Numbered from the stretch's first letter, positions 45,437 to 64,000 are shown. The stretch: 64,000 bases of DNA from an uncultured archaeon (GCA_963810275.1 CAWENF010000021.1:160001-224000); one strand, 5' to 3'. The notes: generated from the letters alone by a model not told the origin. A program made the numbers and translations.

Positions 45437-45540
45437 GGTTTGCTGAGGCTTCTGCCAAGATTTAAGGAGAAAAAGGAAAGAATGAGAGCAACACTTGCAA
45501 ATAGACAATATAACAGAAGCCCTCTCAGCCCCAACTTAAA
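45437..45540. repeat. Intergenic direct repeat, copy 1 (copy 2 at 52410-52515; partial copy at 48350-48375)
   Basis: GGTTTGCTGAGGCTTCTGC...ATTTAAGGAGAAAAA...CAGCCCCAA. Confidence 0.7.
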
Positions 45541-45593
45541 AAAATTAAAAAAAACAAAAAAGGGAGGGAAAAAATTTTTCATAGTTTTTCACC

Positions 45594-48016
45594 TTATGGG
45601 TGCTTTCTTAGAACTAACATCATGACGGCTAAGACTACGATGATTGGAACGATGATTGCTGCTGACATTGGTATGAAGTATTGGTCAGCCATGCTTGGAG
45701 GTTGTGTTGGTTGCGGCGAGGGTGTTGCTGATGTGGGGTCAACTGCGAAAGATGTGACTGCGTGAGATTGCCAGTAAGATTTGCTGCCTGCAAATGATGC
45801 GTAGAGAGTATATTTGCCTTCAATGTCAGGTGTCCAGTTGTATGTGAAGAAGCCATCGGCATCTGCTGTTGTAGTGCCTATAGTTCGATAGTTGCCATTT
45901 GAGTCAACAACACTCAATTCCACTTGTACACCTACCACGTTTGTTGGGCGGGGTCTTTGCATAGAACGTATTGATCCATGCGGTCATGCTTTCGTCAGAT
46001 ACTGCGGGGACACCATTGGAAAACGAGCAGCTTGTATTCCTGAGCAAATACAGCAATGTCCAGTACTGTGCCTTCGATCATTACACTGCTTCCTTGTGTT
46101 GTGACTTTGGGTGAGGCATTAACTGTTATAGCGCTATGTCCTTTTCCGAATGCATATATCTGGTTGTCCATAGCATTGTGTGTTACTAGTAATCCATCTG
46201 CAAGGGCGCCCATGGCATTTCTAAGCCTTGATAAGCACCAGAAATATTCCAGATGCCTTCGCCTGTTGTAGCGTTAATAGCCCACATTTTCATACACGAA
46301 TAAGGGTTGGTCTGGCGAGTGTTCATTGTGTGGAATGTAGATTTTGCCATCTGGAATTATTGAGGCGCCATAGAAAGCCCAAGTACCGTAGGTTGTGTCA
46401 AGCTGAACTTGAGCACAGGCTCAATGCTTTCTGACCTGTAGTCATATTGTATCCAGATACAATCTCTGCAGATCCAGCGATGTAGAATATGTGGCCACAA
46501 AACCCCTCCAACATCAAAGATACCCAGTGGTTTTGTGGACCTTGAAGTGGATATATTTAATTTTATGTTTTTATGTGCAGAATTATCCACTGTTGATCTT
46601 CTCTGAAGGGTAGAGCGTATAACTCTGTGTATAGACTAATGTAACGGATATACGTGCGACAGTATCCGTCAATTTTCATTACCAGAAAAAATTCTTACCT
46701 GCTGTATCCTACGTGTACAAAAGTAGGCAATGGGTCTGTTAGTACTGGAAAAGTTCTGGTAGTGATCGTCACACCTTATTTTTCATCTCACCATTCAATA
46801 TGATCCTGCGCCATTTACTATGTTTGCATCCACTTCCCATTAAATACTATCGTGCTATTGATTGTTTGTCCTTGAAAACGTTCGATCTACGTTCATTATT
46901 TTGCTAACTCCAACATTTGAGGTGAAAATGATCTGGGAAGCGCAATAAGTACTCATCTCTAAATATCCTTTGCGTTATTGATAGTGTAAATTCGTATTTC
47001 GCCTTTTCGCACATTTGAACGTCACCGCTTGAGGCGTTCTAGACTGAAGGAATAATTACCTGTGAATCTATCATCTATCTGCTATGTAGTTTGTTGAATC
47101 ATGGATCAGCCAGACTATAAATTTTTACGCGTTATGGGAAAATGCAACCTAATCGTAGGCTGTTGAAACCGCTCCATAGGAGATGTTTTGATACTATAGA
47201 GATCACCTATACATACATCTACTGCTATTGTACCGTATCTTGGTGGTTCTGCGGTTTCGTAGTAGAGAACACCGTTCATAATGATTGGTGGTCTAAACAT
47301 TGGTTAATAGTTCAAGCCGCCATAGTAAGATTCAGCATAGCCGATAATTCCTCTCACTATTCCTCCTGGCAGCAATTGTTTTGTCCACATTATGTGTGAA
47401 GTGTTAGGTCCTGTAGAGTAGGGATTTGCATTACCGCTGCCTTCATAGGCTACTGCGTCTTTATCGCCTTTACCCATGAGCCAGTTTCCTGCAATAGTGT
47501 ACCATTCCCTATTTTCCGAATTTATTGGTCTTGTCCAATATTCAGTTGGAAACGGTAATTCAGGTGTTATGCCAATAGGTTGCTCTTGAACAGTGATTTC
47601 AATTGTTTTTGATTCTAGTGGTACATACCATCTTGAATAGCCATTTGAGCCCGTTCTGTTTACCCATTGTCCTGGAAAGCTAGCGTGTATTTTGTAAGTT
47701 CCTGTACTATCTGGAGTGAACCCAATGTAAGTACCTCCTTTATATCCGATTTCAATCCGCTGAATGTTTGTGTCTTTCCGTCTGGTTTTTCCACAGTAAC
47801 TTCGACGTTATCCCAAGTTTGTCCGGCAATTGGATTTGGTATTGCAAGCCACCATTGAATGTTTAATTGCTGACCAACACCGACAGGATTTGGAACTGCA
47901 CTGATGAATAATCGTGTTTCGACATCAACAGCCGACACTTGTATTACTGACATCATAGAAGGCAAAATTAGAAGCAAAATGCTCACAAAAATTATTGATA
48001 CTTTTTTGTTTTTCAA
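45594..48016 (-). pseudogene. PQQ-binding-like beta-propeller surface protein 2 (heavily disrupted)
   Basis: AVPNPVGVGQ, PTEYWTRPIN, PPIIMNGVLYY, DNQIYAFGKG, DSNGNYRTIGTT, TM plus RKHP in separate frames. Confidence 0.75.
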
Positions 48017-48053
48017 TTTCTTAAATCTCCGTTTCGGGATTTTAGTTTATCAA

Positions 48054-48295
48054 GTTTAATGTTTTTTGCAAATAAGTCTCACGGACACTGCGTGCATACA
48101 AATAAATGCTCAAAACTATGATTAGTTTAACAAACTGATTTTAATAATAAACATAATGCTTGCTCACTTTTTGTGCATACAAATAATTGTGTAAAAATAT
48201 GGGTCATTAGGACACAAATAGCAAACTATAAACAAGAAAAGAAAACAAGTACTAAAAATTAAGATCTCTATTTTTTCGGTACTGACTTTAATTAT
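48054..48295. repeat. Duplicated upstream regulatory region, copy 1, with four CAAATA motifs
   Basis: Aligns with 51061-51305 (TTTGCAAATAAGTCTCACG, CATACAAATAA, GGACACAAATAGCAAA, ACAAGAAAA, AAGATC). Confidence 0.8.
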
Positions 48296-48409
48296 GCTAA
48301 AGACGCTTCGGTTGGTCTGGGAATAGAGAATTAAGTTATCAATGTTAAACAGAAACTTCTCAGCCCCAATTTGAAATCCAAAACGAAAAAAAGAAAGTGG
48401 GGGCTTGGT

Positions 48410-51045
48410 TTATGGTTTTTTTCTTAGCATCAAGATCATGACTGCGCCGATGACTGCAACGAGGATGAATAAGGCTGCGATTGCTGGTATGAAATATTGA
48501 TCTGCCATAGATTCTGGTTGCTCAGCTTGAGGAGTTGGTGTTGCTGCTGCTTGATCGACGTTAAATGCTGTAACTGCATGCGATGGATAATATGAGCTAC
48601 TTCCTTCAAAGGATGCGTAAATTATGTATTTGCCTTCAATATCAGGCTGCCATGTGAAACTGTAGAATCCATCTGAGTCAGCTGTGGTTGTTCCAATCGT
48701 TCTATAGTTGCCGTTTGCATCTAATACGCTTAAATTGATGTCAACACCTTGCGCATTTGGTTTTTCTGTTTGTTGATAAACGTACTTCATCCAGTCTGCC
48801 ATACTTTCATCAGACACTGCAGGAACGCCGTCGGGGAATCTTAATTGAATTTCTTTTTGAGTACTACCCGGTGAGACGTCTGTAATTGAACCTCTTATTG
48901 TTATCGTGTTAGCAATTGTTATACCACTTGATGGTACGTCAATGTTTATTGCGCTTGGACCTTTACCTATTGCGTATATTTGCATGTCATATGTGTTCAT
49001 AGCTGCAATGATACTATCTCCAATTAGAGGGTATCCACCCCAGTGAGTCCCGCGAATAAGACCATCTGCTCTCCAAACTACATCACCGGTTGTTGCGTTA
49101 AGACAAATCATTGGTGCGTCGACTGGAAGTGAAAGTTCATATCCGGAGTGTTCTGTGTGTATGACATAAATCAGGCCGTTTGCAATGAACATTGGATAAA
49201 GTGGCCATTCTGCGAACGTTGATCCTAACGCTCTTTCATTGATAGCTGTATAATTCCAAAGCAAATTGCCTGTTAAAGTATCGTAGCAATATAGCACACC
49301 TGAATATCCAGCGGTATAATATTTGCCGTCGTAAATTTGATTAACTGCTCTAGCTGATGTTCCTGCAAGACCCATAGTATAGAAGTCTAAGTAACCGTGT
49401 GAATCCGAAGTCCATAAGTGTGCACCTGTTTCAACACTAAATGCATAATCTTGTCGTGTTTCTTTTTCACCAAAAACTATGATCTCATCTTGTGATAGAT
49501 CACTTGTTGCCTGCCATGCAATTGTTACATTACCATCTTTCCAGTCTGATGGTGAATCCCATACCTTGTTGAAAAATAAAGTTCCTGCACGTTGTTCGTC
49601 AATGCTTATTGCCCATAATGTAACACCATTCGCCGATGCAGTTCCACCAAGAATTCGGTCATCAAGAACTGAAAAGACAGATCCAGGTAGACCCGTTGGA
49701 ATAGTTACGTTCCATTCGTATCCTGCATATCCTGTTGGTGTTAGTTCGTTGTCTGCTGGAGTGACAGATGAAATTCCTGTTGCATCAACAACTTTACCTT
49801 CAGGAACCCATTGTTGTAGGTTTGTTGTACCAATTTCTTGTCCTGCCCATAAGTCAGGAATGTTAGTTGAGTTCCAAAGGGTCATGTAGCCTTTTGCTAA
49901 GGTTAGTTGTATAGACAAGCATTTCACCGTTTTCGCCGATAACTTTGTTTCCTGATGGGACATTGTAGATTGAATAGATGTATTCACCCGTGAATGGATC
50001 AAATGCACATAAAGTTGTACCTGCATTGAATGGAAGTCCTAGTGATGTTTTAGTTTCTGCGGTTGCAGTAGCCCATAAGTAAGGATATGTGCCAACAACG
50101 TTAATTGAGTTCCATTGCATCAATTGTCCTTGAGCTAAAGTCAAATTGTTGAGAAAAGTTTTTGTCCAAAGCACTTCACCTGTATGCAAGTTTACAGCTG
50201 TGTATTCATGAATCTTTGATGTAGTTGGATAGTTGTCGTAGTACAAGTTTCCAAGCATTATGACGCTTCTCAAGAATTTGCCTTGATATGCATCTCCAAT
50301 AGTTACTCTGTCTTCTGTTATTGTACTTGTAGTTCCTTTGCTGCCACCAACTAATCCTCCACCTGTAATTGGTCTACTCCAAAGTAGATGGGGTGATTGT
50401 GGTGCGTAATCGTTTCCATATGCTATTCTGTTATAGGTGTTAGCTGTGTTTGATGCCATTAACCAGTTGCCGCCAATGGTTTGCCATGTTTGGTACTGGT
50501 TGTTTATTGGTCTTGACCAGTATTCATTAGGTAAGGGTTGATAAATAGCACCCTGAATTGGTTCAGATTGTACAACTATACTCCACTTTTTCACTAGAAC
50601 TTGCTTGCATTATTGTTCCTTTTGGGAGAGAAGAACCTATGCTAGCGGGATTAGTTTGTTCTGGGAAGAACGATTGTAAAATATATGTTCCTTCCATGTC
50701 CGGTGTAAAACTTGTTGATGTTCCGCCAGTTGAATCAGTTGCAAATGGACCTAAAGTTGTCTCGTGACCGTCTGGGTCTGTGATGACTACTGTAAGTCCT
50801 GTCCAGCTATATTGGTCAGCAGCTAATTGTTGAGTTATACCTAACCGGATAAGAACTTCTTGTCCTACGCCGATGGGGTTTGGTGTTGCCCCAACGAATG
50901 CATAAGTTTTTAACGTGGGTTCAGCGCTGTCTTCACCGTTTATTGTCGGAATAATAGTTGATACTGATAGTACAGATAGCAACGTTATTGTCAGTATAGC
51001 AAATATTTTATTGGTTTTTGACACTTTCATTTTTTCTTGCTCCAT
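48410..51045 (-). CDS. PQQ-binding-like beta-propeller surface protein 3 (two frameshifts)
   Basis: Track ORFs 50563-51045, 49863-50594 and 48410-50026 join into one protein: ATPNPIGVGQ, LPNEYWSRPIN, EHS, YAIGKGPS, RFPDGVPAVSDESM, TM plus RKKP. Confidence 0.85.
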
Positions 51046-51060
51046 AATTTTGTAACATTA

Positions 51061-51305
51061 GTTTGATGTATTTGCAAATAAGTCTCACGAACATCAAGTG
51101 CGTTCAAATAAATGTAAAGAAGTATGGTCAGTTTGGGAAATGGAGTGGGAAAATAAACAGATAAACCTGCTCACATTGCGTACATACAAATAAATGTGTA
51201 AAAAATCGGTGATTTGGGACACAAATAGCAAATTATAGACAAGAAAAAGAGAGCAAGTATTAAAAAAAATAAGATCGCCATTTATTTGGTATGGACTATA
51301 ATTAC
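51061..51305. repeat. Duplicated upstream regulatory region, copy 2
   Basis: See 48054-48295. Confidence 0.8.
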
Positions 51306-51975
51306 ACGAGGATTATAATTGAAATCCTTTCAGCGATTGCCTGCTTAGTATTAGCAAATTCATGATAAAACCATATCAACTTAAGAAACAAAGCAGGTAT
51401 CTTGGCTTACCATCGGATTTGGTATTCTTGGTTTAAGTTTTGCTCTTACTGTACGCTACTAATCCCGCCGCTTTATCATAATGCTGCATTGTCATGGTTT
51501 GCACACTTCACACGGGTATTTGCATTTATATTCCTCGCAATAACATACTATTTTTCAAAAAATCAGAAAAACGATTACTATGGGACCTAACTCTTAGCCT
51601 CGTGATAGTTGCCTTTATTGCTTCAGCTTTAGCACTCTTATATGCGCCACGAGATATTCTATCAAACTATACAGTTGCTCTGACCTTTGTCCGTATTCTT
51701 AGTTTAGCAGTCCTATCTTACATAATTATCCATACGTTTAGAATACACACAGCAAATCCAAATCTAACACCATATTGGGTCCCCCTGGGCTTTCTATTCT
51801 TCGCATTGAGCCAGTTTTTGTTACTTACATGTACATTACTGAGAGGTTCATTAGATTCAATTGCACAGATACATTAAGCTGGGTAGCTTTGCGTTCGATT
51901 GGCAGGTTTAACATTTTTCTTTTTGTTACCTATCGAACCTTTTACAGTTCTGAGGGAATGGGTCACAATAGATGA
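51291..51975 (+). pseudogene. Polytopic membrane protein preceding a wHTH gene (several frameshifts)
   Basis: MDYNYTRIIIEILSAIACLVL / FMIKPYQL / RYLGLPSDL / FTRVFAFIFLAITYYFSK / YWVPLGFLFFALSQF / FLFVTYRTFYS; stop overlaps wHTH ATG. Confidence 0.65.
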
Positions 51976-52244
51976 ATAAGATTCATCGAAGTAGGATGGA
52001 AATATACGGCGAACTGTTAGCTGTGCTAAAAGAAGAAACTAACAACGAAAAGTTAGTGGTGACTCGGATTCAGGGTCGAATTAATGTGCCTTTTGATCGA
52101 TTTAAAAAATACATTTCAGAGCTTTACAGTTTAGGCTTGATTGAGGACCAGACTACTCTTAAACTTACAGACAAAGGAAAAGAATACCTAAAGGGATACG
52201 AGCAAATTGTGATTTTCATGGAGCGCATGGGTCTCACAAAATAG
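51972..52244 (+). CDS. Winged helix-turn-helix regulator (ArnR1/HTH_45-like)
   Basis: HRSRMEIYGELL...TRIQGRINVPFDRFKKYISEL...LTDKGKEYL. Confidence 0.85.
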   Translation: MNKIHRSRMEIYGELLAVLKEETNNEKLVVTRIQGRINVPFDRFKKYISELYSLGLIEDQTTLKLTDKGKEYLKGYEQIVIFMERMGLTK

Positions 52245-52409
52245 AATAACACTTTGAGACTATGCAGTGCTAGACTATGTCCCTTTTTATGAAGGGGGGA
52301 GAAAAAAACGATAAATTCTTCTCCAGAGGTGCGTATCCCAGCGGATTCGCCATTTTAGTTGTAAAAAATCTGATTTGCAGTACCTTTAGTCAACAAAAGA
52401 AGATTTTAA

Positions 52410-52515
52410 GGTTTGCTGAGGCTTCTGCTTAAGGAGATTTAAGGAGAAAAATTAATTAAAACAACAGCAAACAACATCATACACATACAAAAACCCTCAT
52501 CAACCCCAATTTTAA
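52410..52515. repeat. Intergenic direct repeat, copy 2
   Basis: GGTTTGCTGAGGCTTCTGC...ATTTAAGGAGAAAAA...CAACCCCAAT. Confidence 0.7.
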
Positions 52516-52750
52516 AGCCAAAAAAACTAAAAGAGAGTTATGCTCCGTGATGCTATTTTGTTTGTATAAAATAAATCGTAGAAAAGAGTAGCCCAGAAGA
52601 GATTCGAACTCTTTAGGACTTTTCTTTCCTGCTGAAAGAAAATCCCTGCCAAAAGAAAGGGCTTTAATTTGGGTTTCTTCGTGTTCCATATGTTGTTTCT
52701 CCGTATCTTTATGTGATACAATACATATCAATCAATAGACAAATATAAAT

Positions 52751-52767
52751 GTATCATAATATGATAC
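52751..52767. promoter_or_regulatory. Perfect palindromic operator
   Basis: GTATCATA-A-TATGATAC between TATAAA (52744-52749) and the ATG at 52783. Confidence 0.65.
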
Positions 52768-52782
52768 TCTAAGTGACTGCCG

Positions 52783-52965
52783 ATGCATAAAGCCATCCTA
52801 TCAGAACGTGAAAGAACTCTACTAACCAAATTCCTTGACGATGAACCCATAACAGATGAAACCTTCCGAATGCTAAAAATGAGGATTAAGCGAAACTATC
52901 CCACTATAACTCAAGATTTTCAGCTAATCAGCCAACTATTGAATAAGCTTGAATCTTCCACATAG
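52783..52965 (+). CDS. Small helical protein, probably DNA-binding
   Basis: MHKAILSERERTLLTKFL...FRMLKMRIKR; TATA box and operator upstream. Confidence 0.65.
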   Translation: MHKAILSERERTLLTKFLDDEPITDETFRMLKMRIKRNYPTITQDFQLISQLLNKLESST

Positions 52966-53016
52966 GGCTATTTTTACTATATTTTATTTTAGAATTTACT
53001 TCTATAATTATTGGAT

Positions 53017-53047
53017 ACCTTTTCCTGAGGTCGGGGTATACCACCCT
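53017..53047 (+). repeat. Inverted copy of the junction repeat block
   Basis: ACCTTTTCCTGAGGTCGGGGTATACCACCC, reverse-complement orientation of GGGTA...GGAAAAGGT. Confidence 0.6.
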
Positions 53048-53132
53048 CTATCAATCATCATATGAACTATAGTAAGTTAGTAATTGATTTTTTATTAGTT
53101 AATTATTAGAATAGCAATTAATCTATGGTTAG

Positions 53133-53220
53133 TTTATCAAGTAACTTTGGCATTATTTCTCATAGTCATTATTTTAGCCATTGAATCCTATAGGGGGGTA
53201 GCATAGGTATGGGAAAAGGT
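53133..53220 (-). repeat. Cassette junction J1
   Basis: ATCAA-GTAACT-TTGGC and GGGGGGTAGCATAGGTATGGGAAAAGGT. Confidence 0.65.
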
Positions 53221-53339
53221 CTAATGATTCCAAGCTATACCAAATTATTTCTATATGGTTGATTGCTGTCAGAACTTATTAGCGGACATAGTACATATCC
53301 AAAAAATATTAAATCGAACAAGGCATAAGAGCAATAGTT

Positions 53340-53516
53340 ATGACTCCTACTAAGATTAACAGCATTCTTTCAGTTATTGGATTATTATTGATTTTTATTG
53401 CCATAATTGGCGGATATTTTACTTTAGGTCAACAATTGTTTGGTTACTTTTCATTCATCGGACTCGCTGGTTTGATAATTCAAATATGGGTGTATCATAG
53501 AAAGAAGCAGATATGA
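53340..53516 (+). CDS. Small two-TM protein (58 aa)
   Basis: MTPTKINSILSVIGLLLIFIAIIGGYFTLGQQLFGYFSFIGLAGLIIQIWVYHRKKQI*; below ORF-track cutoff. Confidence 0.65.
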   Translation: MTPTKINSILSVIGLLLIFIAIIGGYFTLGQQLFGYFSFIGLAGLIIQIWVYHRKKQI

Positions 53517-53547
53517 AAAAAGGTCAAAACTAAAAACAAAATAGCAC

Positions 53548-53624
53548 ATCAAATATTTCTTTGATTAACTATTGTCGAATTGATTAAGAATGGGGGTAGG
53601 GTACACCCAAGCTTGGGAAAAGGT
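53548..53624 (-). repeat. Cassette junction J2
   Basis: TTTCTTTGATTAA...TTGATTAAG...GGGGGTAGGGTACACCCAAGCTTGGGAAAAGGT abutting the stop at 53625. Confidence 0.75.
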
Positions 53625-54494
53625 CTACTTATCCGACAGAACGGTTTTTCGATGCCTTCTAAAGAGCACACCAGCAATAAACGCCAAGGCGATAATAACA
53701 AGTATAATTGGCAATATTACCAAATTTGGCAAGTCTGTATACCCAACCGAAAACGTTATTGTTTTTTCATCCATATTTCCATACATATCACTTACATACA
53801 AAGTCAAAGAGTGGGTACCTTTTGATAACTCTGTCAATGTTATATTCCACGTACTTGGATTACCATTATGACTATCCCAAAGAGTCACGTTATTTGCTCC
53901 ATCAAGACTATACCCTGCCCAATCAGTCAATCTGCTAACAGTATAGCTTAACGAAACATTAGATTCTCTGTAAGTCTGATTTGACGGCGATAAAAGGTTG
54001 ATTTCGATAGGATTACCTGTTACAGTATAATTAAGAGAAAGTTGAGGAACTATTGGATTTTCTACTCCCCATATGTAGCTACAAAAGCAGCTAAAAGTGT
54101 AGGTTCCTGAGTATTGTGCAGTAAAGTTGAAAGAGTCTTCGGTTGAGTTAAAATCATATAGCGTTTTAGAGTTTACGTCTTGGATTTTTGGGTGTACAGA
54201 GTAAGTGATTAGTTCACCATGTCCACCGATGTATCTGTTTGGGTAATAGTGAAAGTTGTTGATTATAAATAAACCTTGAACTTGGTCACCTTTTTCAAGC
54301 GGCATCATTCGGATTGTGAAATAGCCTTCAGGGACAAGTGAGTATTGTTCGCATAATTCCTTATTGAATTCTTGTGGTACGTTGGATGATGGTTGTGGAT
54401 TTTCAGGTTGAACCACAAACAAGGTTAAACATAGCGATATGATTATTAGAGATAGAATTAATGCAAAGGTTTTGCCGATTCTACCCATGTTCAA
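53625..54494 (-). CDS. Membrane-anchored surface protein (Ig-like domain, TM-RRHRKT tail)
   Basis: Signal peptide, LSPSNQTY...GYSLDG...GTHSLTLYVSDMYGN, TM plus LFRRHRKT. Confidence 0.85.
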   Translation of the reverse strand: MNMGRIGKTFALILSLIIISLCLTLFVVQPENPQPSSNVPQEFNKELCEQYSLVPEGYFTIRMMPLEKGDQVQGLFIINNFHYYPNRYIGGHGELITYSVHPKIQDVNSKTLYDFNSTEDSFNFTAQYSGTYTFSCFCSYIWGVENPIVPQLSLNYTVTGNPIEINLLSPSNQTYRESNVSLSYTVSRLTDWAGYSLDGANNVTLWDSHNGNPSTWNITLTELSKGTHSLTLYVSDMYGNMDEKTITFSVGYTDLPNLVILPIILVIIALAFIAGVLFRRHRKTVLSDK

Positions 54495-54526
54495 TATTGG
54501 TGTTTAGAAGTGATATAACGTTAATT

Positions 54527-54633
54527 GTATAGATTTCTTGACTAAGCTGAGTCGAGGTTTATTGACTAACAGAAAGAGGTAGTTTAGCGGGAAAAGGTTA
54601 AGCTTCCAAGTGACGTTTTTTCGATGCCTAAAA
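54527..54633 (-). repeat. Cassette junction J3 including an orphan RHRK-tail sequence
   Basis: GTATA-GATTTC-TTGACTAAG, GTCGA-GGTTTA-TTGACTAA (24 bp later), GGGAAAAGGTTA, then TTTTTTCGATGCCTAAA. Confidence 0.8.
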
Positions 54634-54671
54634 TAATTTTGTGGTTCTATATTTGCAGATATACTTAGAAG

Positions 54672-55556
54672 CTATATTTTTAATTTCAGAAGAGTTCCAT
54701 TTGGCTGGAACTCTGCCACAAACACATCTCTTGCAGTCAGCGTAAGGGTAATTCCTTGGTAGCTATCAAAAATATCAAACTCCAAATCCAAATTCAAGTC
54801 AGTGTTAGTGGGCTGTTGTCCAGTCGCATTTTCATATTCTAAGATAGCTTGATTGTAAAACCAGTTTAGCCCCAATGAATCAATCTGGATAAAATCATTG
54901 TTTATTTGCTCATGCGACGGATAACCGCTGGGAAGATCATAATCGCTATAATGACTGGAAACCTAATAAAAATATGGATCACCACTACTATGCCCTACAG
55001 TTAACCGTGTTCTAATGTCTCCTGCATAAAAAGCCCAGTGTACCCCACCTTGCGGTGCGTTACTATAAGTCGAATGAATACTAAGACTCTCAAAAATCAA
55101 AGTCCCAAAATGTTCAAGTTGATAAAACTGAAAACTCGATGAGGACTCAAGAGTTTGAAGGTATGATGATAATGAAGCATCCAGTATTTCAGGATAACTT
55201 GCAGTAGGAGCAGTAGGTCCTGCATAACCCTGCATGTAAAACCCTACCCCTCCAAACGCCAACATGAATATAAAGAAACCTACAACCAGTCTGCTGAATA
55301 TTTTAGTTATTTTGTTCTTAATGACAATAAGGATAATGGTTATAACTAGTAGTAATCCGCTAATCGAAACAAGAATGATTGAAAGTGTCGAAATTGGGAC
55401 TGTAGTAAGCTGGATTAGAAAGAAACTTGCAACAAAAAACAGTACCAGTCGGGGAAGACCAATTCTACGCATGAGTTGCGGTTTGTTCTCTTTGGACGGT
55501 TGAGGTTGGCTACTTTTTAACGGTAATAGTCTATATGTTCGTTTGGGAGAACTCAT
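54672..55556 (-). CDS. Hypothetical membrane protein, frameshift near 54963
   Basis: Track ORFs 54963-55556 (3 TM) and 54672-54875 appear to be one gene. Confidence 0.6.
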
Positions 55557-55734
55557 TTTAAGAAATCTTGGATAATTGCAAGTTTTTGGTTTTGATGTTG
55601 TTAGATATTACTTTGATGCTTTTGAAGTTATTAGTTGACACTCTCTTGTTTGTTACTAATGTATTTGTATGGTTACTTTCATTATTAGTCTTTATTAACA
55701 TTTTTAGTGTGTGCTTGAAAGTTATTTGAATTAT

Positions 55735-55770
55735 TCTAACAGATAGCGTAGTAGGTAAGTTGTGAAAAGT
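55735..55770 (-). repeat. Cassette junction J4 (degenerate)
   Basis: CTAACAGATAGCGTAGTAGGTAAGTTGTGAAAAGT abutting the stop at 55771. Confidence 0.45.
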
Positions 55771-56427
55771 TCACGGCTTCAAGTATGCGGTTTTTCGATG
55801 CCTTCTAAAGAGCAAAACTGACAGCAAAAAGACAGCCACTATAACGCCAATAGGCAACAGGCAATTTGTCAACTCTAAGTGTGGTGCATTTCTATCTGTC
55901 GGTGGGGAAGGAGTCGGAATTGATTCAAAGTTACTGGTAAATACTACGGTTGAATTTGCTTCACTCCGATATGTAAACCCAAACATCGCAACAATAAGGT
56001 TTACAGAACCAGCTGTATTAATCTCTACTTTATGCGTTCCATCGGGAATATTTGAGATGGTCTCATTAAATTCTAAAAATTCAACTTCGCTATCCTGATT
56101 TGAATAGAGGTTAGTTTCTTTAGTTTGCCAATCACCCTTATAGTAAACTCTTGTTATGCTTCCAGAGTTATTTCTTACACCATTATGCTCTATGATACTT
56201 GACGGTATATTGGGTGATAATTTGATAATTTGTGGCTTTGTTACGTTGAAATATAATTGAATTGAATTAGATTGTATTGTAGAACCATTTTGTGGATAAG
56301 TGACGGTGATATTTGGTCCAGTCATTGTTGGTTTATAAAGTTCATAGTAGTCTTGAGCATCCACAATTGCCAAGGGTATTGTTGTTAGCATCAACCCAAT
56401 TATTACCAAAGCCACTATTAGTTTCAT
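55771..56427 (-). CDS. Membrane-anchored surface protein (Ig-like domain, TM-RRHRKT tail)
   Basis: Signal peptide, ITVTYPQN, IPDGTHKVEI, DRNAPHL, TM plus LFRRHRKTAYLKP. Confidence 0.85.
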   Translation of the reverse strand: MKLIVALVIIGLMLTTIPLAIVDAQDYYELYKPTMTGPNITVTYPQNGSTIQSNSIQLYFNVTKPQIIKLSPNIPSSIIEHNGVRNNSGSITRVYYKGDWQTKETNLYSNQDSEVEFLEFNETISNIPDGTHKVEINTAGSVNLIVAMFGFTYRSEANSTVVFTSNFESIPTPSPPTDRNAPHLELTNCLLPIGVIVAVFLLSVLLFRRHRKTAYLKP

Positions 56428-56466
56428 GTCAGTTTTAGTTTACTTTATATTCCACTTATGAGCCTT

Positions 56467-56530
56467 TTTGTCAAGCTTTCTTGACTAAGCTAAAAGAATA
56501 AGGGTGGGGTAGCATAGTCGTGGGAAAAGA
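56467..56530 (-). repeat. Cassette junction J5
   Basis: TTTGTCAA-GCTTTC-TTGACTAAG...GGGTGGGGTAGCATAGTCGTGGGAAAAGA. Confidence 0.85.
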
Positions 56531-56532
56531 TG

Positions 56533-57291
56533 CTAATTCTGTTTCTTGGTATTTTCTTCTTGTAGTTGCCATAATCTACCAAATTCACGTTCATTATCAA
56601 CGAATTCTTTCAAGTCATTAGCATATACACTTGAAGCCTTTTTGTAGAACCAATCATAGAAGTCTTTTATCAATCCCTGATATTCTATAAAGACGGCTGT
56701 AACCTCTATTTCTTTATGTGTATTAAGGTAATTCTTGGAATGTGCTGTCCAAGCATTATTTCCATGCCAAGATAAGAGAACTTTTTTGTCAAACAGAATG
56801 CTTGATTGAATTTCGTTTGGGTCACTTTTAAAATTTAATTGAGCAGAGATAAGCGGTAAACCTATATGTTGATTAAATCTTCGCAAGTCTTTAACAAAGT
56901 GGTAGCAATCATAAAGCTTTAGCTTAACAACCATTTCATCATAATCCTTCCTCAAGTTTTTATTCTGTAATTGGTCACAGAAATTGCTACTATGGCTAAT
57001 TAAGGAAAATGTACTTGATAGATAATTATGTATCAAGCGTGATAGCTCTCTCAAGAAAGCCTGAAATTTATCTCTCTTAGCAATATCCCACATGTTAATG
57101 GAGTCTTTTTCGTATAATGCAATTTGTTTTTCCAGTTCTTGATAGTTCTTAATGACAAAATACTGAGAGGTTGCAAGATTCTGAATGTCATTGAAGATTT
57201 TAGCACCTTTCAGCTTCTCCCGCTTGTCCATTAATGCTCTTATGCGTTTTCCTATAGGTTCATTCTTTACGGGATACTTTTCTTCAACCAA
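56533..57291 (-). CDS. Hypothetical cytoplasmic helical protein with HEPN-like RxxxxH motif
   Basis: RLIHNYLSSTFSLISH and KDLRRFNQHIGLP. Confidence 0.75.
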   Translation of the reverse strand: MVEEKYPVKNEPIGKRIRALMDKREKLKGAKIFNDIQNLATSQYFVIKNYQELEKQIALYEKDSINMWDIAKRDKFQAFLRELSRLIHNYLSSTFSLISHSSNFCDQLQNKNLRKDYDEMVVKLKLYDCYHFVKDLRRFNQHIGLPLISAQLNFKSDPNEIQSSILFDKKVLLSWHGNNAWTAHSKNYLNTHKEIEVTAVFIEYQGLIKDFYDWFYKKASSVYANDLKEFVDNEREFGRLWQLQEENTKKQN

Positions 57292-57345
57292 CTAAATCAA
57301 CTGTACTCTTTTCTAACGCTATTCTGTTGATAATACCTTTAACTT

Positions 57346-59004
57346 TTACCACCGAAATCGGTTGGAGAATATGGTGGGTACACCTTGCTGTGGGAAAAGG
57401 TCATTGCTTCGGGTTACGGTTTTTCGATGCCTTCGATAAAGTACTACGCAAACCAAACAAATGAAAACAACCGAGATTACAGCAATTATGGTCAAGAATA
57501 ATAATGATTCAGTTTCCTGTATAGTGAAGCTGATTGTTTTTGAAATGCCTTGATTGTCATATCCGTCCATAGCATAGACTGTAATATTATGTGTACCAAG
57601 CGGCAAATCCGTGAGCGTTAGATTACCCGAGATAGTCTCATTCTGCTTTCCATCCAAACTGTAGCCAATCCATGTAACCTGTTTGTTGAGTACAAAGTCT
57701 AAACTTACATTTCTGACTGAATAAGCAACGCTTTCTGGATTGATAATTTCTATAGTTGGCATTATAAGCCAATCAGGAAACACTTCCTCAACAGTGGACA
57801 GATTGAATGGATTTATGAGCGGGTATCGGTCAAGATGGGTAGGGTCTAAGTAGAATGGAGAATCACCCAAGCCATCGCTGTTGTTATCCTCTCCTTGGTA
57901 TGTATTCCAATAATTACCTTCTTTGCCATTATCCAAATAGTCAGTAACATTTGACATAGACAGTGTCCACATTTGATAATATCGATTGTCCACAAAGTTG
58001 TTATGAACTAAGAAGCTAAGATTACCGTAAGGGTTTATGATAGCGTTACGAGAGTTTATAGTCCATTCATTGTAGGCAATGTAGTTTGCATACATTATAC
58101 TATCGGCACTTGGGGAAATACCGATTCGGCAGTAAGTAATGTTATTTAACAAAGCTTTATTGCCATAGCCGATTATAATTAAACCTTAGCCGTAATGGTC
58201 AAGTACATTTCTGCATACTATGTTATCTTTGCCATTGACTCTAAATTCTCCACTTTCTGTAAAGATATTCTTGTAAAAAAAGCAATCATCAGTGGTAGAA
58301 GAAAAAGAGCCAGTGACGTTGTTAAAAGACATAACACCGAAAGTTCCAACAAAATTAACATCACCATTTATAATTCTATTTGAGGAAAAGTTACAGTGGT
58401 TTCCAGCTATTTCATAATCATACAACCGTTTAGCAGAAGGGTTTTCGGAAAATACATTATCTGTGATATCATTATTAGAGCCAAGCATAGTCAAAGGGGC
58501 TTTTATGGAGTTATTTCTAAGTTGACTGTTTGAACCGATTATTGACATAAAGGAAGTAAGGACGTTTCCTTTTATTTGATTATTATTTCCAGTTATGTTT
58601 ATGTCGCCACCATTGGTTACGATTGTGAATCCAGTAAGTACAAAGTTGTCTGAATGTACTTTCATTGCTGTATCATACCATACTGGAGCGGGGAAAAGGT
58701 CTGGAAGATACCAATACAAGGGTTCACCCACATGCTTTTCTGATTGTAGATTTAGCTTTGTTGAGCCAGCATTCTCGCCTATTAGAGCAACGGATTTGTC
58801 TATGGTGAGTTCGGTTTCAGTGTAAATTCCGCTTCTAACATAAATTGTATCTCCGTTTGTGGCGTTTTTTATTGCAGAGGAAATTGTAGGAAAATCATCA
58901 GGCACTGTTATTACCTTTTGTTGGGCTTTAACGGTTAAGGGTTGAATCGCTACTAAGGATGCGACAACCAGCAAAATAAGCAGTAAACATAGCCCTTTTC
59001 TCAT
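57346..59004 (-). CDS. NosD/pectin-lyase-like parallel beta-helix surface protein with Ig-like domain and RRHRKT tail (frameshift near 58190)
   Basis: ITVPDDFPTISSAI...GDTIYVRSGIY, DNGKEGNYW...DGLGDSP...DRYPL, GYSLDG, YRRHRKT; a 1-nt loss near 57417 reads through the expected TGA at 57401-57403. Confidence 0.8.
57371..57401 (-). repeat. Cassette junction J6 (stop-proximal block only)
   Basis: ATGGTGGGTACACCTTGCTGTGGGAAAAGGT. Confidence 0.7.
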
Positions 59005-59966
59005 TCTTGCCCTACTCCAGACTCAACAGTTTTACGCTGTCTTCTATAAATAGTGAACGATAGAACAACAATAATTACAGCCACTATAACGCCAATAGGC
59101 AACAGGTAAAATATCGAGTCTAAATGTGGTGCATTTCTATCTGAAGATGGGGAAGGAGTCGGATTTGATACCGCATAAATATCGACAGGTGATGTTAAGG
59201 GATATTGGTCAATGTTTTTTTCATCAATAACGTAGACACTTGAACCGTTATAGTCGCTCCAATAATTACCGACTGAGCCATTATCCCATGAATCTATTGA
59301 ATAATACACTCTGGCTGTGTTAGTATTACTTACAGTATCGCATACAAAGTTATTTTGATATATCGTATTGTTAGAAGAAGTTACAAAACTGATTAAGCTG
59401 GTATATTCGCTCTTGCTTCTAAAACTATTTTGGGAAATTACATTTTGAGAACTATTTATAAAAATCATTCCAGTCAAATTGTCTCTGATAATATTTTGGG
59501 CAAATAGGTTTGAGTTGCTACCAATTGAATAAATTCCGCCAACATCAATGCCGTTCATACCCTGAATACTCCAAAATCCTGTTAGTGTATTGTTGTAAAT
59601 CAGGCAGTTTGAGGAATTAGTCAAAGATAAGCCTATTAATGAAATTTTTTCATCCTTGTCAATAATAAAGCCCTTAATAATGACATTAGATAGCTGATTC
59701 AAAATAATAGCTGATATAGTCTGTTTGTTGCCGTCAAGCACAATATTGCTTGCTTTTACAGTTATAATTCCCTTAACGCCACTTGTTACAACATAATCTT
59801 TACCAGTTTGTTGAATTGGTGCTGATGAAGGTGTGATGCTTCCATTTGATTCAATGGTTATATTACCGTTGTCTTGAGCTTCAGTCGGCGATCGTTGAAG
59901 GTTTTGTATAGATAATAGAAATGCTATTATCATCAGTACAGCAAAGACTTTGCCATTTTTTTGCAT
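59001..59966 (-). CDS. NosD-like beta-helix surface protein with RRQRKT tail
   Basis: ITIESNGSI, SNIVLDG, WDNGSVGNYWSDY, DQYPL, DRNAPHL, TM plus YRRQRKT; stop overlaps next ATG. Confidence 0.85.
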   Translation of the reverse strand: MQKNGKVFAVLMIIAFLLSIQNLQRSPTEAQDNGNITIESNGSITPSSAPIQQTGKDYVVTSGVKGIITVKASNIVLDGNKQTISAIILNQLSNVIIKGFIIDKDEKISLIGLSLTNSSNCLIYNNTLTGFWSIQGMNGIDVGGIYSIGSNSNLFAQNIIRDNLTGMIFINSSQNVISQNSFRSKSEYTSLISFVTSSNNTIYQNNFVCDTVSNTNTARVYYSIDSWDNGSVGNYWSDYNGSSVYVIDEKNIDQYPLTSPVDIYAVSNPTPSPSSDRNAPHLDSIFYLLPIGVIVAVIIVVLSFTIYRRQRKTVESGVGQE

Positions 59967-60000
59967 AATCCATTTTTGGATAAATTTAGTTAAAAGCATT

Positions 60001-60047
60001 CTTGTTCAGACTTCTTGACTAAGCATAGTGAACTTTTCTTGACTTAG
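60001..60047 (-). repeat. Cassette junction J7 (paired palindromes)
   Basis: GTTCA-GACTTC-TTGACTAAG and GTGAA-CTTTTC-TTGACTTAG, 24 bp apart. Confidence 0.75.
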
Positions 60048-60127
60048 ATGGCGGACCAGATTTCATACATAATAGAATTTGATAATTCGTTGAGTCAATT
60101 GCGTGTTTTTGTTTTTATGTTTTTTGT

Positions 60128-60314
60128 TTATCTTTTTGGTATAAGTATGCTTGTAAGCGAACCAGCTATTGCGATTAATGAGAAGTAAAAAAACTCTTTT
60201 GATACCTCTGTTGCTTGAGATAAAGATATGTAACCTCCAATTATAGCAAATGCAAACAGAGATATTGAAAGTAAAGACAACAGACGATATTGTTTTGTTA
60301 TAGGATATTTCCAA
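60128..60314 (-). CDS. Small two-TM protein, paralog of 53340-53516 (one frameshift)
   Basis: SLLSISLFAFAIIGGYISLSQATEVSKEFFYFSLIAIAGSLTSILIPKR*. Confidence 0.55.
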
Positions 60315-60367
60315 TATTGTTTATACCTACTTTATCTGACTTGTTAATGTTACAAAATACAAAAACT

Positions 60368-60444
60368 ATACGGGTTTCTTGACTAACCACGTCACCGTTT
60401 CTTGACCAATAGAGGGCAGGGGTACACCCATGCATGGGAAAATT
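60368..60444 (-). repeat. Cassette junction J8
   Basis: ATACG-GGTTTC-TTGACTAA, GTCAC-CGTTTC-TTGACCAA (23 bp later), GGGGTACACCCATGCATGGGAAAATT. Confidence 0.85.
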
Positions 60445-61399
60445 GCACGGCTTCAAGTTACTGGTTTTTTGATGTCTTCTAAAAAGTAGGACTGAAACTA
60501 TGATTATAGCAAGTATTATGCTGATGGGCACCAGGTAATCAATCAACTCTCAATGGGGTGGATTTTATCTTCGGGTGGTGGAGTTGGAATTAAGGAAGGT
60601 GTTGGAGTAGCTATTGAAGTTATATTAACAGGATTTTTCAGTGGATAGTGGTCAACATTGTTGCTATTAATAAAATATGAACCAATACCTGAGTAATCAC
60701 TCCAATAATTTCCCAGTGAGCCGTTATCCCAAAAGTTCTTTTCGAGGAAACAATAAAATTATTTTGACCAAGTAAGTTATTGTTAAAAAGTGTGTTGTTA
60801 TGACAGCCCCTTGTTACCAGAACTTCAGTTATGTTATTTTCGGTAAAATGGCTGCTATTGCTGAGGTTTAAAGTCTCAATAGTGCTGTGTGCGACTCGAT
60901 TTTTTACCCCTAAACCAAGTGTATAGCCAATATAGCAGTTAGAGACTGTAACGAAATGACTATCTGACAAATCTATATTCCATGTTGTGTTAGCATTGAA
61001 AATAAGGCAATTAGAACAATTTTCCAATAAAATTCCAGCACGACCCAAAAAACCAATTATTGAAATGTCTTTTAGATGACGTTCTTACATTTTCCAGCTT
61101 AAACCTGAATTACTTGCTCGGTCATACACTGAAGACCCGTTAATAGTGTATCCTGCGCCATCAAAGACGATATTGCTGCATTGAATGATAAGTGCATATT
61201 TGCCCGAGATGTCTTTTGTTAGAGTGTATGTGTTTCCTTGTTGTTGGATAAATTCTGTTTGTGGTTCTATGCTTCCATCGCTTTTTATGGTGATATAGGG
61301 TAAATAGACGCTGGGATATGCTCGTGGAATTAATGATTACCCCAGATGTGATGGGATAAAAAGACCTAAAACCAAAATCATGACTATTAATTTTTTCAT
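60445..61399 (-). pseudogene. NosD-like beta-helix surface protein with RRHQKT tail (multiple frameshifts)
   Basis: ITIKSDGSIEP, YTLTKDI, SNIVFDGAGYT, WDNGSLGN, DHYPL, TM plus LFRRHQKTSNLKP in several frames. Confidence 0.75.
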
Positions 61400-61455
61400 T
61401 TTATTCCTCGGTCTTTTTCAAGGTTGAATTCCTACAGGATTTAGTAATAAGTTTT

Positions 61456-61478
61456 TCAGTCAACGTTTCTTGACCGGT
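61456..61478 (-). repeat. Cassette junction J9 (single palindrome)
   Basis: TCAGTCAA-CGTTTC-TTGACCGG. Confidence 0.7.
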
Positions 61479-61490
61479 TTCCGATTCCTC

Positions 61491-62442
61491 CTATAAAGTA
61501 ATGCGAGAAATACATAACGCTACACCAACAAAATTATAACTAAGACTTTGACAAGGATAAGCATTGGAAAAGTTTCTGCCTATGGTGAAAACTAATGTTT
61601 CTGAGGCTCCAACGTTCCCAGAAACATCCCATGCATAAATAATCAACTTATGTTCGCCAACAGACAAATCAGTCAAAAGTCATGTTTCCAATCACGCTAT
61701 TATTACCCCAGTATCCAAATTATAAGCAAGCTTTGAGACTGGCTCATTGATTGTAAAAGTTTAAAGGTATAGCATTCTGGAGAATAAGTTGTATTCTCTA
61801 TCCTGATAATACAGTGATGTTTGGGGCAGTTCGGTCTATTGCAAAACTGACTGATGTAGAACCTTCTATTTGAAAGGAATTATAAACTATTTTTTTCAGA
61901 CCCGATACCTTCGCTCAGTGGAACAGGAGCATGGAAAAATTGTCCTTCCTTTTAATGGCATAAACCGTTAAGGTTTATGTTTTCCTCTCTGGTTATTTAT
62001 CGTACCATTAATTCCAGTAAGGTTAAAGCTGCTGTGGAATAATCAAAGGGGTTTAGTTCATACATTCATATACCGGTAAACATAGGTGTTTTTTTGTTGC
62101 CAATCAACCTTATAATAGATTGTATCTTGATCTATCTTGAAGTGTTTAGAATAGAGTTTCCACTCGTAGCTGTAATTGTTAAATTAAAGTTATTCACGTT
62201 TAACGATGAAGTTATTTTCTAAAGGGGTAAGATATAGTTATTGTAGGCGGTTTAGCACCTACTTGGCTGGGTGGTATGCTTCCCCCATTTTCAAGGTATG
62301 TAGAAACGCCAATGCCTGAAATTTCTGCCGAGGAAGCTGATGTATATGATGAATTAGCTTCCCCCAAATTTAGGCTCCCACAGGTCAATAAAATCAGAAA
62401 TAAACATGTTGATGCGATGGTGGGAATCACACGTTTGTTCAT
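61491..62442 (-). pseudogene. Ig-like membrane-anchored surface protein (multiple frameshifts)
   Basis: Signal peptide, KPPTITIS, SVSFAIDRTAPNITV, DLSVGEHKLIIYAWDVSGNVGASET fragments. Confidence 0.7.
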
Positions 62443-62489
62443 TAAAGTTCACTGTTAACAGTAACTTGTCCTTTACATTGAAAAGTGTT

Positions 62490-62535
62490 CTTGTATAGGT
62501 TTCTTTACTAAGACCAGTCAAGAGTCCTTGACTTG
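62490..62535 (-). repeat. Cassette junction J10 (paired palindromes)
   Basis: GTATA-GGTTTC-TTTACTAAG and AGTCAA-GAGTCC-TTGACT, 24 bp apart. Confidence 0.8.
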
Positions 62536-63216
62536 TGTTTTTATTTGTATAGAAACTTGAATTAATCCCTAATTATTAAACAACAAGAATGGATAAAAAA
62601 ATTCTTTTATTAATACCACTTTAATTAGAAAAGAATAAGTGACACCCATGGCAAATAGTCGAACCAGAAAAAAGAGCGTTTATACTCTCAATTCCAATTG
62701 GTTTGATACTAACAATTTTAACAGGCTTTTTTATACTGCTATCTCAGGAAAATTATTTTTCAGCTAATAAAGATGAACAAATTTTTCAGTTAACGATGAG
62801 ATGAGTCCTGTCGGTGGGTTGATAGTATTATTTGGAGATTTAACCTAAACAAATAGAGAAAAGATAAGGGTGTTGAAATGTGACTGGATATAATGTTGGA
62901 TGTAAAAGTCTTTTCTACAATGGTACTGAGGTCCAAGTTGGAAATTATTTTAGTGGGCTATTTTTTGAAAATGGCACTATTAATAGAACCGCTTAAAGCT
63001 GGGGCGAAGTTAGAGAGGTCATAGGAGCTATTATGGTTACTGTAGGTGATGATGCGTTGGGAGTGATGATGTCAAAAAAGGCAGATATTGTTTCCTTTGT
63101 AATTTTGGATAACGTTGTTTTAGACCAACAAGAAAATGTAAGGAATTAAGTTGTATTATGTAGAAGTTTTGGCGCTTCTTTTTCAGAGATATTTTTTGAT
63201 GTATAGTTAAAAGTGT

Positions 63217-63299
63217 CTCGTCCAGATTCTTTGACTAAGTCGTGTAAACTTTATTCATTAAACAAACTATGGGGGTATACACCTTATCCTGGAAAAGGT
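63217..63299 (-). repeat. Cassette junction J11
   Basis: GTCCA-GATTCT-TTGACTAAG...GGGGGTATACACCTTATCCTGGAAAAGGT. Confidence 0.8.
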
Positions 63300-63459
63300 G
63301 GTTATAGAATTTTCCTTTTCCCACCCTTTTCATATTCACAGAAGATTTGAATTCTTCTGGACTTGTGATTATCCCTCTATCCATCAAATTTTGGTAATCT
63401 TCAAGGTCATAAATAAAACCACATTTTTTACATCTTAAAAGAATTTTAATTAAAACCAA
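63235..63459 (-). CDS. Small CxxC protein whose 3' end runs through junction J11
   Basis: LRCKKCGFIYD; GGTG upstream. Confidence 0.45.
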   Translation of the reverse strand: MVLIKILLRCKKCGFIYDLEDYQNLMDRGIITSPEEFKSSVNMKRVGKGKFYNHLFQDKVYTPIVCLMNKVYTT

Positions 63460-63486
63460 TGAAACACCTAAAAAAGAAAGAGATTA

Positions 63487-64000
63487 CTAATTGGAGAATG
63501 GGTTAACTGAGAAGCTAACTCCATCTCCATCGCTTGAAAATTCCGACTGTTTAGTTTCCTTGTGTGTTATCGGATAGTACTTCAGTGCTACACCATCCTT
63601 CTCCTCTTTAAGCAGTCCAGCCATACAGAAGTTCTTCAGCATTTCACGAAGCCGTTTATCTGAGCAATGGCGTTTTTAGTATCGTAGTCATGTTGTGGAT
63701 TTCAGCGATCCGTAAACCAGTCATTTCGTTGCATGCTGGCTCAACCATTTGCCAAACTTCATATTCTTCAGGAGTTAAGCCTAGTTCATTGCATTTGAGG
63801 ATGGGTTCGTCGATGGTCTTAGCTATTTCTATGTCTTGAGTTAGCGTATATGCATAGATCTCTCAAGTGTTGTACTATGTTTTAGAAGTTAATGATGCCC
63901 ATGCTTCAGCAATAGATAGTAGACGTGGAAAGTCTCTTTGTGCCCTTGGACCAAGATTAGAGGTATTCTCAAAGAACCAATGCTGAAGATTTTTCATGTC
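63487..64000 (-). pseudogene. C-terminal part of an MCM/primase-helicase-like replication protein with winged helix (frameshifted, truncated by window edge)
   Basis: PRAQRDFPRLLSIAEAWA (sensor-2-like), TQDIEIAK, GLRIAEIHN / SDKRLREMLKNFCMAGLLKEEKDG. Confidence 0.5.

Follow-up and report, generated by a model that had tools for sequence, protein, structure and literature searches.

Morons of lambdoid prophages are units of promoter, gene and terminator inserted between backbone genes. On Acinetobacter plasmids, Xer sites flank the pdif modules, each site having 28 bp with 11-6-11 inverted arms and the orientation alternating, and archaeal tRNA-targeting integrative elements are characterized by a tyrosine integrase next to a tRNA gene, repeats of the tRNA 3' end, low GC content and patchy presence. 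Integrons have also been described in archaea (Ghaly et al. 2022, PMC9668308), and the hyperplastic regions of T4-type phages contain composite terminator/promoter cassettes termed PeSL (promoter-early stem-loop; PMC4122927), which are the closest described counterpart of the locus reported here. This locus lies in a stretch of 64,000 nucleotides from an uncultured archaeon (GCA_963810275.1, CAWENF010000021.1:160001-224000; hereafter the window), in which an array of gene units at 53.0-63.3 kb is delimited by a palindrome, motif A, and a directional block, motif B. A preliminary description, made from the sequence alone, had read the array as an integron- or dif-module-like system for the site-specific capture and shuffling of cell-surface genes. 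Our analysis revealed that the array is the variable cargo of a mobile element placed in a tRNA-Gln gene by its own tyrosine integrase. From sequence comparison we further propose, with moderate confidence, that the two motifs make up a composite punctuation of gene end and operator/promoter around self-contained modules, and that they are also preferred points of recombination.

An element integrated in tRNA-Gln and its relatives

The integrated element spans window positions 52588 to about 68096 (~15.5 kb; positions past the window end are given as window equivalents) and is inserted in the tRNA-Gln gene between two direct repeats:

52588-52613, plus strand: attL, identical in 26 of 26 nt to the 3' part of tRNA-Gln(CTG) (BLAST E value 1.2e-7)
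68071-68096, past the window end and inside tRNA-Gln: attR, the 26-bp partner of attL

The tRNA-Gln(CTG) gene itself occupies 68069-68144, and its last 26 nt are the att repeat. A tyrosine recombinase, which the preliminary description had expected beyond 64 kb, is indeed located just past the window: a gene at 67183-68028 encodes a 281-aa protein (PF00589, E value 1.2e-20), starts 41 nt from tRNA-Gln and is co-oriented with the array. Integration of the whole island at tRNA-Gln via the 26-bp att repeats explains this integrase, which does not support the cassette-capture reading. The GC content is 0.33-0.37 over 51-64 kb, compared to 0.449 for the whole genome of 2.26 Mb. We count the element as tRNA-integrating because the integrase beside the tRNA, the 26-bp direct repeats, a patchy presence, a conserved flank and a deviant GC content were all found. 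A provirus was considered and rejected: no viral hallmark was found among the 27 proteins, and PHROGs matched the integrase alone, apart from four weak hits without known function. A search of Rfam with 52400-64000 gave no match up to E = 1. For a related protein cluster, one Atlas row gives Candidatus Bathyarchaeota.

The source genome (G000), in which the window lies on contig C21, contains a second, shorter island on contig C3 (72700-81057). Superposition of the two islands showed a left-end block of 90% identity with the homology starting at 52615, one internal module in common (59991-60442, 90%), a backbone of 72% identity from 63208 rightward, and a copy of motif B with the gene of a 78-aa protein next to the integrase (87%), whereas the integrases are only 22% identical. 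The C3 island (L002 10661-19190, corresponding to C3 72661-81190) is bounded by its own 39-nt direct repeat, 92% identical, which by eye resembles a tRNA 3' end, although ARAGORN did not predict a tRNA at this position. Just outside this repeat, a 65-nt sequence is present in two exact copies in tandem (L002 19058-19122 and 19126-19190).

A complete genome of the same genus (G014) possesses a 10.2-kb syntenic island between two copies of the same 26-bp att, with an integrase of 93% identity and a conserved tRNA-side flank of 70% identity. Further islands are present in G001 and G015 and probably in G010 and G022, and several other genomes of the genus have a single att match only. The related islands have their end modules in common and differ in cargo. 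Their shared backbone consists of the integrase, the 78-aa hydrophobic protein, a 444-510-aa protein with weak P-loop matches and a 60-aa protein at the far end, and the cargo sits between the 60-aa gene and the P-loop gene, its length being ~10 kb in the C21 island, 1.8 kb in that of C3 and ~4 kb in that of G014.

Layout and distribution of the two motifs

Motif A reads TTTCTTGACTAAG on the plus strand, with the palindrome GTCAA-N6-TTGAC as its core, and frequently occurs as two copies 23-24 nt apart. Motif B, of about 30 nt, reads GGGGTA..TGGGAAAAGGT on the plus strand and ACCTTTTCC...GGGTGTACCC in gene orientation, with AATGACCTTTTCCCACGnTTGGGTGTACCCACCCT as the gene-orientation consensus of 79 copies. 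Nearly all genes between 53.0 and 63.3 kb are on the minus strand. Followed in gene orientation, a junction is composed of a stop codon, B, ~10-15 nt, a single or double A, a TATA-like box and a start codon 43-64 nt below A; the operator-like A and the TATA-like box lie 25-80 nt upstream of the start codons of the units.

The repeat-delimited array of the preliminary description proved to be real, since one or more motif copies exceed the threshold at 10 of the 11 junctions that it listed, and both motifs exceed chance as judged by spacer and reversed controls. Motif B was found by nhmmer profile (E<1) at 53192, 53597, 56501, 57372, 60419 and 63271, and its core TGGGAAAAGGT with one mismatch at 54588; motif A (TTTCTTGAC, at most one mismatch) is present at 54535/54559, 56478, 60012/60036, 60376/60399, 61467 and 62501/62525. 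The remaining junction, 55735, has a degenerate B by eye only, and the palindromes described at 53133 and 53548 are likewise degenerate. The motif copies are located as follows:

53016-53047, minus strand: motif B, inverted, 51 nt past the stop codon of the 60-aa gene (nhmmer)
53192-53223, plus strand: motif B, at which the homology between C21 and C3 ends
53597-53628, plus strand: motif B, overlapping the stop codon of the gene at 53625-54494
54535-54569, plus strand: pair of motifs A at a 24-nt distance, located 46-80 nt before the ATG at 54489, with an adjoining TATA-like box
54572-54603, plus strand: degenerate motif B (core with one mismatch)
56470-56490, plus strand: motif A, perfect palindrome, with the start at 56427 lying 43 nt downstream
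56501-56531, plus strand: motif B, 2 nt from the stop codon of the gene at 56533-57291
57372-57405, plus strand: motif B, the top-scoring copy in the genome
60000-60046, plus strand: pair of motifs A
60364-60447, plus strand: composite junction, a pair of A (60364-60410) followed by B (60419-60447)
61459-61474, plus strand: motif A, perfect palindrome
62489-62532, plus strand: pair of motifs A
63216-63299, plus strand: degenerate A followed by B (63271-63299); the homology to the C3 backbone resumes at 63208

The array had been taken to end near 53017, but the inverted B at 53016-53047 is a conserved feature of the backbone and not an array end. The B copies within the array are all direct. 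Relative to the stop codon, B is offset by -3 at the gene 53625-54494 and by +2 at 56533-57291, and the open reading frames (ORFs) 57346-58152 and 63235-63459 read through B.

Motif B is specific to the islands. In the profile search of G000, all matches with E<1 fall in the two islands (10 on C21 and 9 on C3), and the E values elsewhere are at least 3.1. A strict pattern gave 12 matches in this genome, 12 of 12 inside islands, compared to 2 for the reversed control, and in G014 all six matches (6/6) are inside the island. The gene-proximal end of B lies -8 to +12 nt from a correctly oriented stop codon in 19 of 51 copies from G000 and its relatives, and in 26 of 56 metagenomic copies from 31 independent contigs; for the metagenomic set, stop codons in the wrong orientation gave 0/56 and random positions 82/2240. 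For many copies, the TGA within AATGACC, at the end of a conserved anchor tail of the preceding protein, serves as this stop codon. The motif follows not only cargo genes but also backbone genes, namely the integrase/78-aa operon in four of the four islands examined and the 60-aa gene, and the same B accompanies integrases of 22% identity, which speaks against the cassette site that the preliminary description saw in it. The loose B pattern on genome contigs produced at least 120 single matches in unrelated bacteria, evidently by chance, and was set aside; the specific pattern matched nothing in a collection of viral contigs. Two metagenomic contigs, L161 (10.9 kb) and L175 (11.9 kb), have arrays of 4-5 co-oriented B copies, with copies of A 24-45 nt ahead of them, and neither contains an integrase or a backbone gene.

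The conservation of B is that of primary sequence. A TTTT tract is invariant in 79 of 79 aligned copies, and RNAalifold predicted 0 pairs on the same alignment, in which inverted recombinase arms are also lacking. Two candidate hairpins are paired in 69.1% and 73.1% of alignment cells, compared to 68.6% and 73.0% in shuffled sequences, and the single-stranded DNA folds of the junctions are no better than shuffles in eight of nine cases (z from +0.96 to -1.56), with one at -2.81. None of these folds and tests yielded an attC-like structure, in agreement with the preliminary description, which had distinguished the junctions from attC sites.

Motif A is not specific to the array but dispersed on the chromosomes of the genus beside ordinary genes, which for this half of the repeat is the very finding that the preliminary description had named as speaking against itself. 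The perfect palindrome GTCAA-N6-TTGAC occurs 16 times in the genome, 14 times between genes, whereas spacers of 2-5 and 7-11 nt gave 2-8 occurrences each, with 0-2 intergenic. Eleven of the 16 are outside the two islands (nine of them intergenic), where the neighbours include a radical-SAM/DinB pair, DUF763, an Lsm-like gene, a ferredoxin/NosD pair and unknown genes. According to crude ORF calls, a start codon follows 7 of the 14 intergenic sites at a distance of 43-111 nt. The extended motif GTCAAGAAANNTTGAC has 56 matches in five genomes of the genus, compared to 0 for reversed controls; the seven extended sites of the complete genome G014 are spread from 0.22 to 1.71 Mb, with none in the island. 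Since A is dispersed, mostly intergenic and often upstream of start codons, it reads as a transcription-factor operator, putatively host-wide, and its presence before chromosomal genes suggests a host regulon. Individual palindromes at C4:23343-23448, C17:19568-19617, C18:81927, C5:32408 and C15:45346 (L005, L010, L012, L007 and L009) precede the radical-SAM/DinB pair, the Lsm-like gene, DUF763 and unknown genes.

Exchange of modules, cargo and backbone genes

In the comparison with relatives that the preliminary description had called for, the related islands proved to have different cargo, with homology breaking off at the repeats. Single genes recur in G005, G014 and G022 at 75-85% nucleotide identity with other neighbours. 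The gene at 55771-56427, for instance, is 75% identical, together with its promoter and A, to a G022 locus with other neighbours, and the stretch in common begins at the stop codon, includes the promoter and A, and stops at B. When 46 loci were compared all against all, 315 ends of homology blocks were obtained, of which 57 are within 15 nt of A or B; for random positions the figure is 799 of 15750, which makes the enrichment 3.5-fold. The other 258 ends lie more than 15 nt away, and A and B are therefore preferred but not exclusive breakpoints. Between C21 and C3, one break separates the shared 78-aa gene (87%) from the adjacent, unrelated integrases, and one falls between A and the TATA-like box; breaks are also found inside coding regions. 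An anchor-coding module (family D4) is 88% identical between otherwise unrelated genes. These comparisons support the units as exchangeable modules inside a mobile element, and we infer that the exchange would be homologous rather than site-specific. The proposed capture and shuffling of cassettes is thus upheld as regards exchangeable modules, differing cargo and breaks at repeats, but not as regards integron- or dif-type sites.

Most cargo genes encode surface proteins with a common C-terminal anchor module, in units of one or sometimes two genes:

53340-53516, plus strand: 58-aa ORF with two hydrophobic stretches and a weak DUF6903 match, the only plus-strand cargo gene
53625-54494, minus strand: 289-aa surface protein with weak PKD/Ig matches, a C-terminal membrane anchor and an FRRHRK tail
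54604-55556, minus strand: broken gene of a membrane protein, in-frame TAG at 54963-54965; its 293-aa homologue in G005 is intact and 82% identical in aa
55771-56427, minus strand: 218-aa surface protein with the same anchor tail as 53625-54494
56533-57291, minus strand: 252-aa protein lacking signal peptide and anchor, not assigned to a family
57346-59004, minus strand: gene of a ~550-aa surface protein with anchor tail; an in-frame TAA interrupts the gene at 58186-58188
59001-59999, minus strand: 332-aa NosD-like parallel β-helix surface protein with anchor tail, overlapping 57346-59004 by 4 nt
60063-60314, minus strand: module of a small ORF; including the A and B on its flanks, 90% identical to C3 73959-74410 and 86% to C17 41847-42210
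60298-61400, minus strand: remnants of a β-helix gene in several frames
61491-62442, minus strand: gene remnants in several frames

At least five genes are broken (54604-55556, 57346-59004, 60298-61400, 61491-62442 and 63490-64897), and the sequence indicates that the C21 island is a decaying copy. The in-frame TAG at 54963-54965 and TAA at 58186-58188 could be nonsense mutations or assembly errors; an intact 530-aa homologue of 57346-59004 is present in G014. The coupled pair formerly placed at 57346-59966 consists of 59001-59999 and the broken 57346-59004, which overlap by 4 nt. Pfam, PHROGs, NCBIfam, PADLOC and Atlas all failed to support the HEPN-like assignment of 56533-57291, an R-x4-H string being visible by eye only. 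Searched as a genome-wide family, the C-terminal anchor motif gave only six matches in the genome, four of them in the C21 island. The small-ORF module with its A and B (59991-60442) exists in three copies in the genome, with 86-90% identity.

Two backbone genes lie partly or wholly in the window:

52783-52965, plus strand: gene of the 60-aa backbone protein, placed at the island's left end and conserved with 66-69% aa identity in three other islands
63490-64000, continuing to 64897, minus strand: 3' part of the P-loop backbone gene, frameshifted, with tblastn matches in three frames

The 60-aa protein has no Pfam or PDB match and no detected DNA-binding domain, and no family was assigned to it; a guess of a helix-turn-helix (HTH) protein had no support in profile and structure-database matches and was dropped, and a DNA-binding role would be conjectural. 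Its gene is frameshifted in the C3 island. For the P-loop protein, Atlas offers PF27228 as a lead (10-41% of cluster members), a literature search on the ORF naming that family found nothing, and tblastn gave no match in phage or plasmid collections. Intact copies of its gene exist, for example in G001 and G015.

A 272-aa protein at 66082-66900 (L001:2082-2900, plus strand) has an R-x4-H string and a weak match to the HEPN region of Cas13a (E value 0.005), and at the same position the C3 island has a split PDC-S32/AbiJ-like candidate defence gene (L002:16403-16935); the position beside the integrase operon is therefore assigned to defence-type cargo. The region to the left of the island (42460-52244) encodes host surface proteins (PQQ-like β-propeller combined with Ig-like domains). 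It also contains two winged-helix genes of the HTH_45 type (44941-45366 and 51972-52244), which are candidate regulators.

Readings of the repeats and described counterparts

We propose that each cargo unit would be a self-contained transcription unit with its own operator and TATA-like box. Motif B would mark the 3' end of the transcription units, with a possible role in termination or 3'-end formation, and motif A, just upstream of the TATA-like box, would activate or gate the next gene and thereby tie it to the host regulon. The recurring A and B, together with the shared anchor-coding tail, might function as footholds of homology for recombination within and between elements: as the same punctuation stands between unrelated genes, it would supply the homology by which modules are shuffled.

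Several observations weigh against this proposal. A terminator for the host RNA polymerase need not be element-specific, nor need it conserve ~25 further bases. The motif itself has only a T4 tract, and T-runs of at least 5 within 45 nt downstream of B are barely enriched (15/92 versus 299/2760). Of 92 B copies, only 33 are followed by an A half-site within 70 nt, so the composite junction of B and A is common but not the rule. Some copies have no preceding ORF, including the one at 53192 and the tandem copies at 65720-66011 in intergenic DNA of the backbone. Moreover, the left end of the island has a conserved inverted pair of B (53016 and 53192) with ~145 bp of AT-rich DNA in between, an arrangement that looks more like a protein-binding region. 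Finally, the B copies are short and diverged, and would therefore be poor substrates for homologous recombination. The inverted pair also exists at C3 73104-73313 and at L036 1893-2106, and its region next to the 60-aa gene (53016-53223) may be an origin or control region.

The same arrangement favours another explanation, in which B is a binding site (operator or iteron) of an element protein such as the 60-aa or the P-loop protein, acting in silencing, replication or roadblock termination. The element specificity, the conserved primary sequence without base-pair covariation, the inverted pair around AT-rich DNA beside the 60-aa gene in several islands and the tandem copies in the backbone would all fit such a site. 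We nevertheless regard it as rather unlikely, as an ordinary operator or iteron would not be expected to show so strong an association with stop codons in one orientation, the 60-aa protein has no detected DNA-binding domain, the P-loop gene is broken in the C21 island and the 60-aa gene is frameshifted in the C3 island. It is very unlikely that the repeats are inert flanks left by tandem duplication of one ancestral surface-protein gene and have no present function. Several cargo genes are paralogous (β-helix proteins with a common anchor tail), the anchor tail and B constitute one conserved 3' block, and many genes are decaying, all of which fits this reading. However, unrelated genes (56533-57291, the 78-aa and the 60-aa gene) are flanked by A and B, and both motifs persist in different species and in metagenomes with unrelated genes in between; in addition, the TTTT tract is invariant in 79/79 copies and A stands at unrelated chromosomal promoters.

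That B is a true site-specific recombination site, at which single genes with their own promoters are captured, excised and reordered without attC hairpins, appears distinctly doubtful to us. Such a site would account for the fixed orientation at the 3' end of single-gene units, the element specificity, the single B right after the integrase operon in 4/4 islands (an attI-like position), the different cargo between common end modules and the enrichment of homology-block ends near the motifs. Against it, the tRNA att repeats already account for the substrates of the integrase, and the C21 and C3 integrases, 22% identical and with different att sites, are accompanied by near-identical B. The integrase is also far under the IntI and XerA cut-offs, B has neither inverted recombinase arms nor a hairpin, the units have their own operator and TATA-like box, and 258/315 block ends are away from A or B, with breaks also at the integrase/78-aa gene boundary, within coding regions and between A and the TATA-like box. 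The recombinase would then be an element protein other than the integrase, or the integrases would share a second specificity, an assumption just as doubtful. One metagenomic contig joins 60043 to 57417 with 9 letters in between at a depth of 2.8; it derives from one DNA sample (share 0.08) with 200-300-nt contigs of relatives, the only sample listed for this stretch besides which no RNA run appeared, and we judged it too thin as evidence. Altogether, the integron/dif reading was partly right in spirit, given the exchangeable modules, the mobile element and the nearby tyrosine recombinase, but, as far as can be tested, it was wrong on the nature of the repeats, for which we prefer the composite punctuation.

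The islands make up a family of small elements that integrate at tRNA genes of an uncultured archaeal genus, with modular cargo of surface-protein and defence type. As the A half borrows a putative host-wide operator, acquired genes may be wired into the host regulon. Should B act in termination, it would be an archaeal terminator of unusual sequence specificity; should it act in recombination, it would represent a new kind of cassette system that diversifies the cell-surface and defence repertoire of the genus. In either case, B provides a sequence handle for such elements and their cargo in metagenomes, where a single pattern found 31 contigs.

The locus is organized similarly to integrons, including those of archaea: most units have a single gene, a site of constant orientation follows each unit, and a tyrosine recombinase is close by. 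The components differ. The integrase is not of the IntI type (TIGR02249, 47.5 bits versus a cut-off of 265; PRK15417, 30.1 versus 435), and its sites are the tRNA att repeats. The attC sites are imperfect hairpins of ~57-141 nt conserved in structure, whereas B has ~30 nt, is conserved in sequence and is unstructured. Integron cassettes are promoterless and depend on a common Pc by attI with a divergent intI, whereas the units here have putative promoters of their own and the integrase is co-oriented. The pdif modules are likewise exchangeable gene modules delimited by short sites; however, B lacks the 11-6-11 inverted arms, and its array copies are direct rather than alternating. The integrase also differs from the dif/Xer system, scoring 96 bits against the archaeal XerA cut-off of 220.

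The position of the integrase, the repeats, the GC content and the patchiness are all as in tRNA-targeting archaeal elements, but the backbone set has no match in PHROGs or in phage and plasmid collections, and the punctuated cargo array is unusual. Similar to morons, the units are self-contained accessory genes in an integrated element with surface and defence-type cargo, in contrast to which they stand here in tandem, many together, with one family-wide punctuation sequence.

The resemblance is closest to the PeSL of T4-type phages. In both cases, the variable region of a mobile genome contains short composite motifs that separate ORFs, mostly single and unrelated to each other, and that coincide with points of insertion, deletion and replacement among relatives, a coincidence that takes the form of an enrichment here (57/315). 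The placement of the motifs also agrees, B lying at stop codons and A upstream of starts, although this likeness is one of position only. The locus differs in being an archaeal integrative element rather than a phage, and in a gene-end half without a stem-loop. Its promoter half corresponds to a putative operator that is also found at host chromosomal promoters, and the regulatory activity of the motifs here is putative as well.

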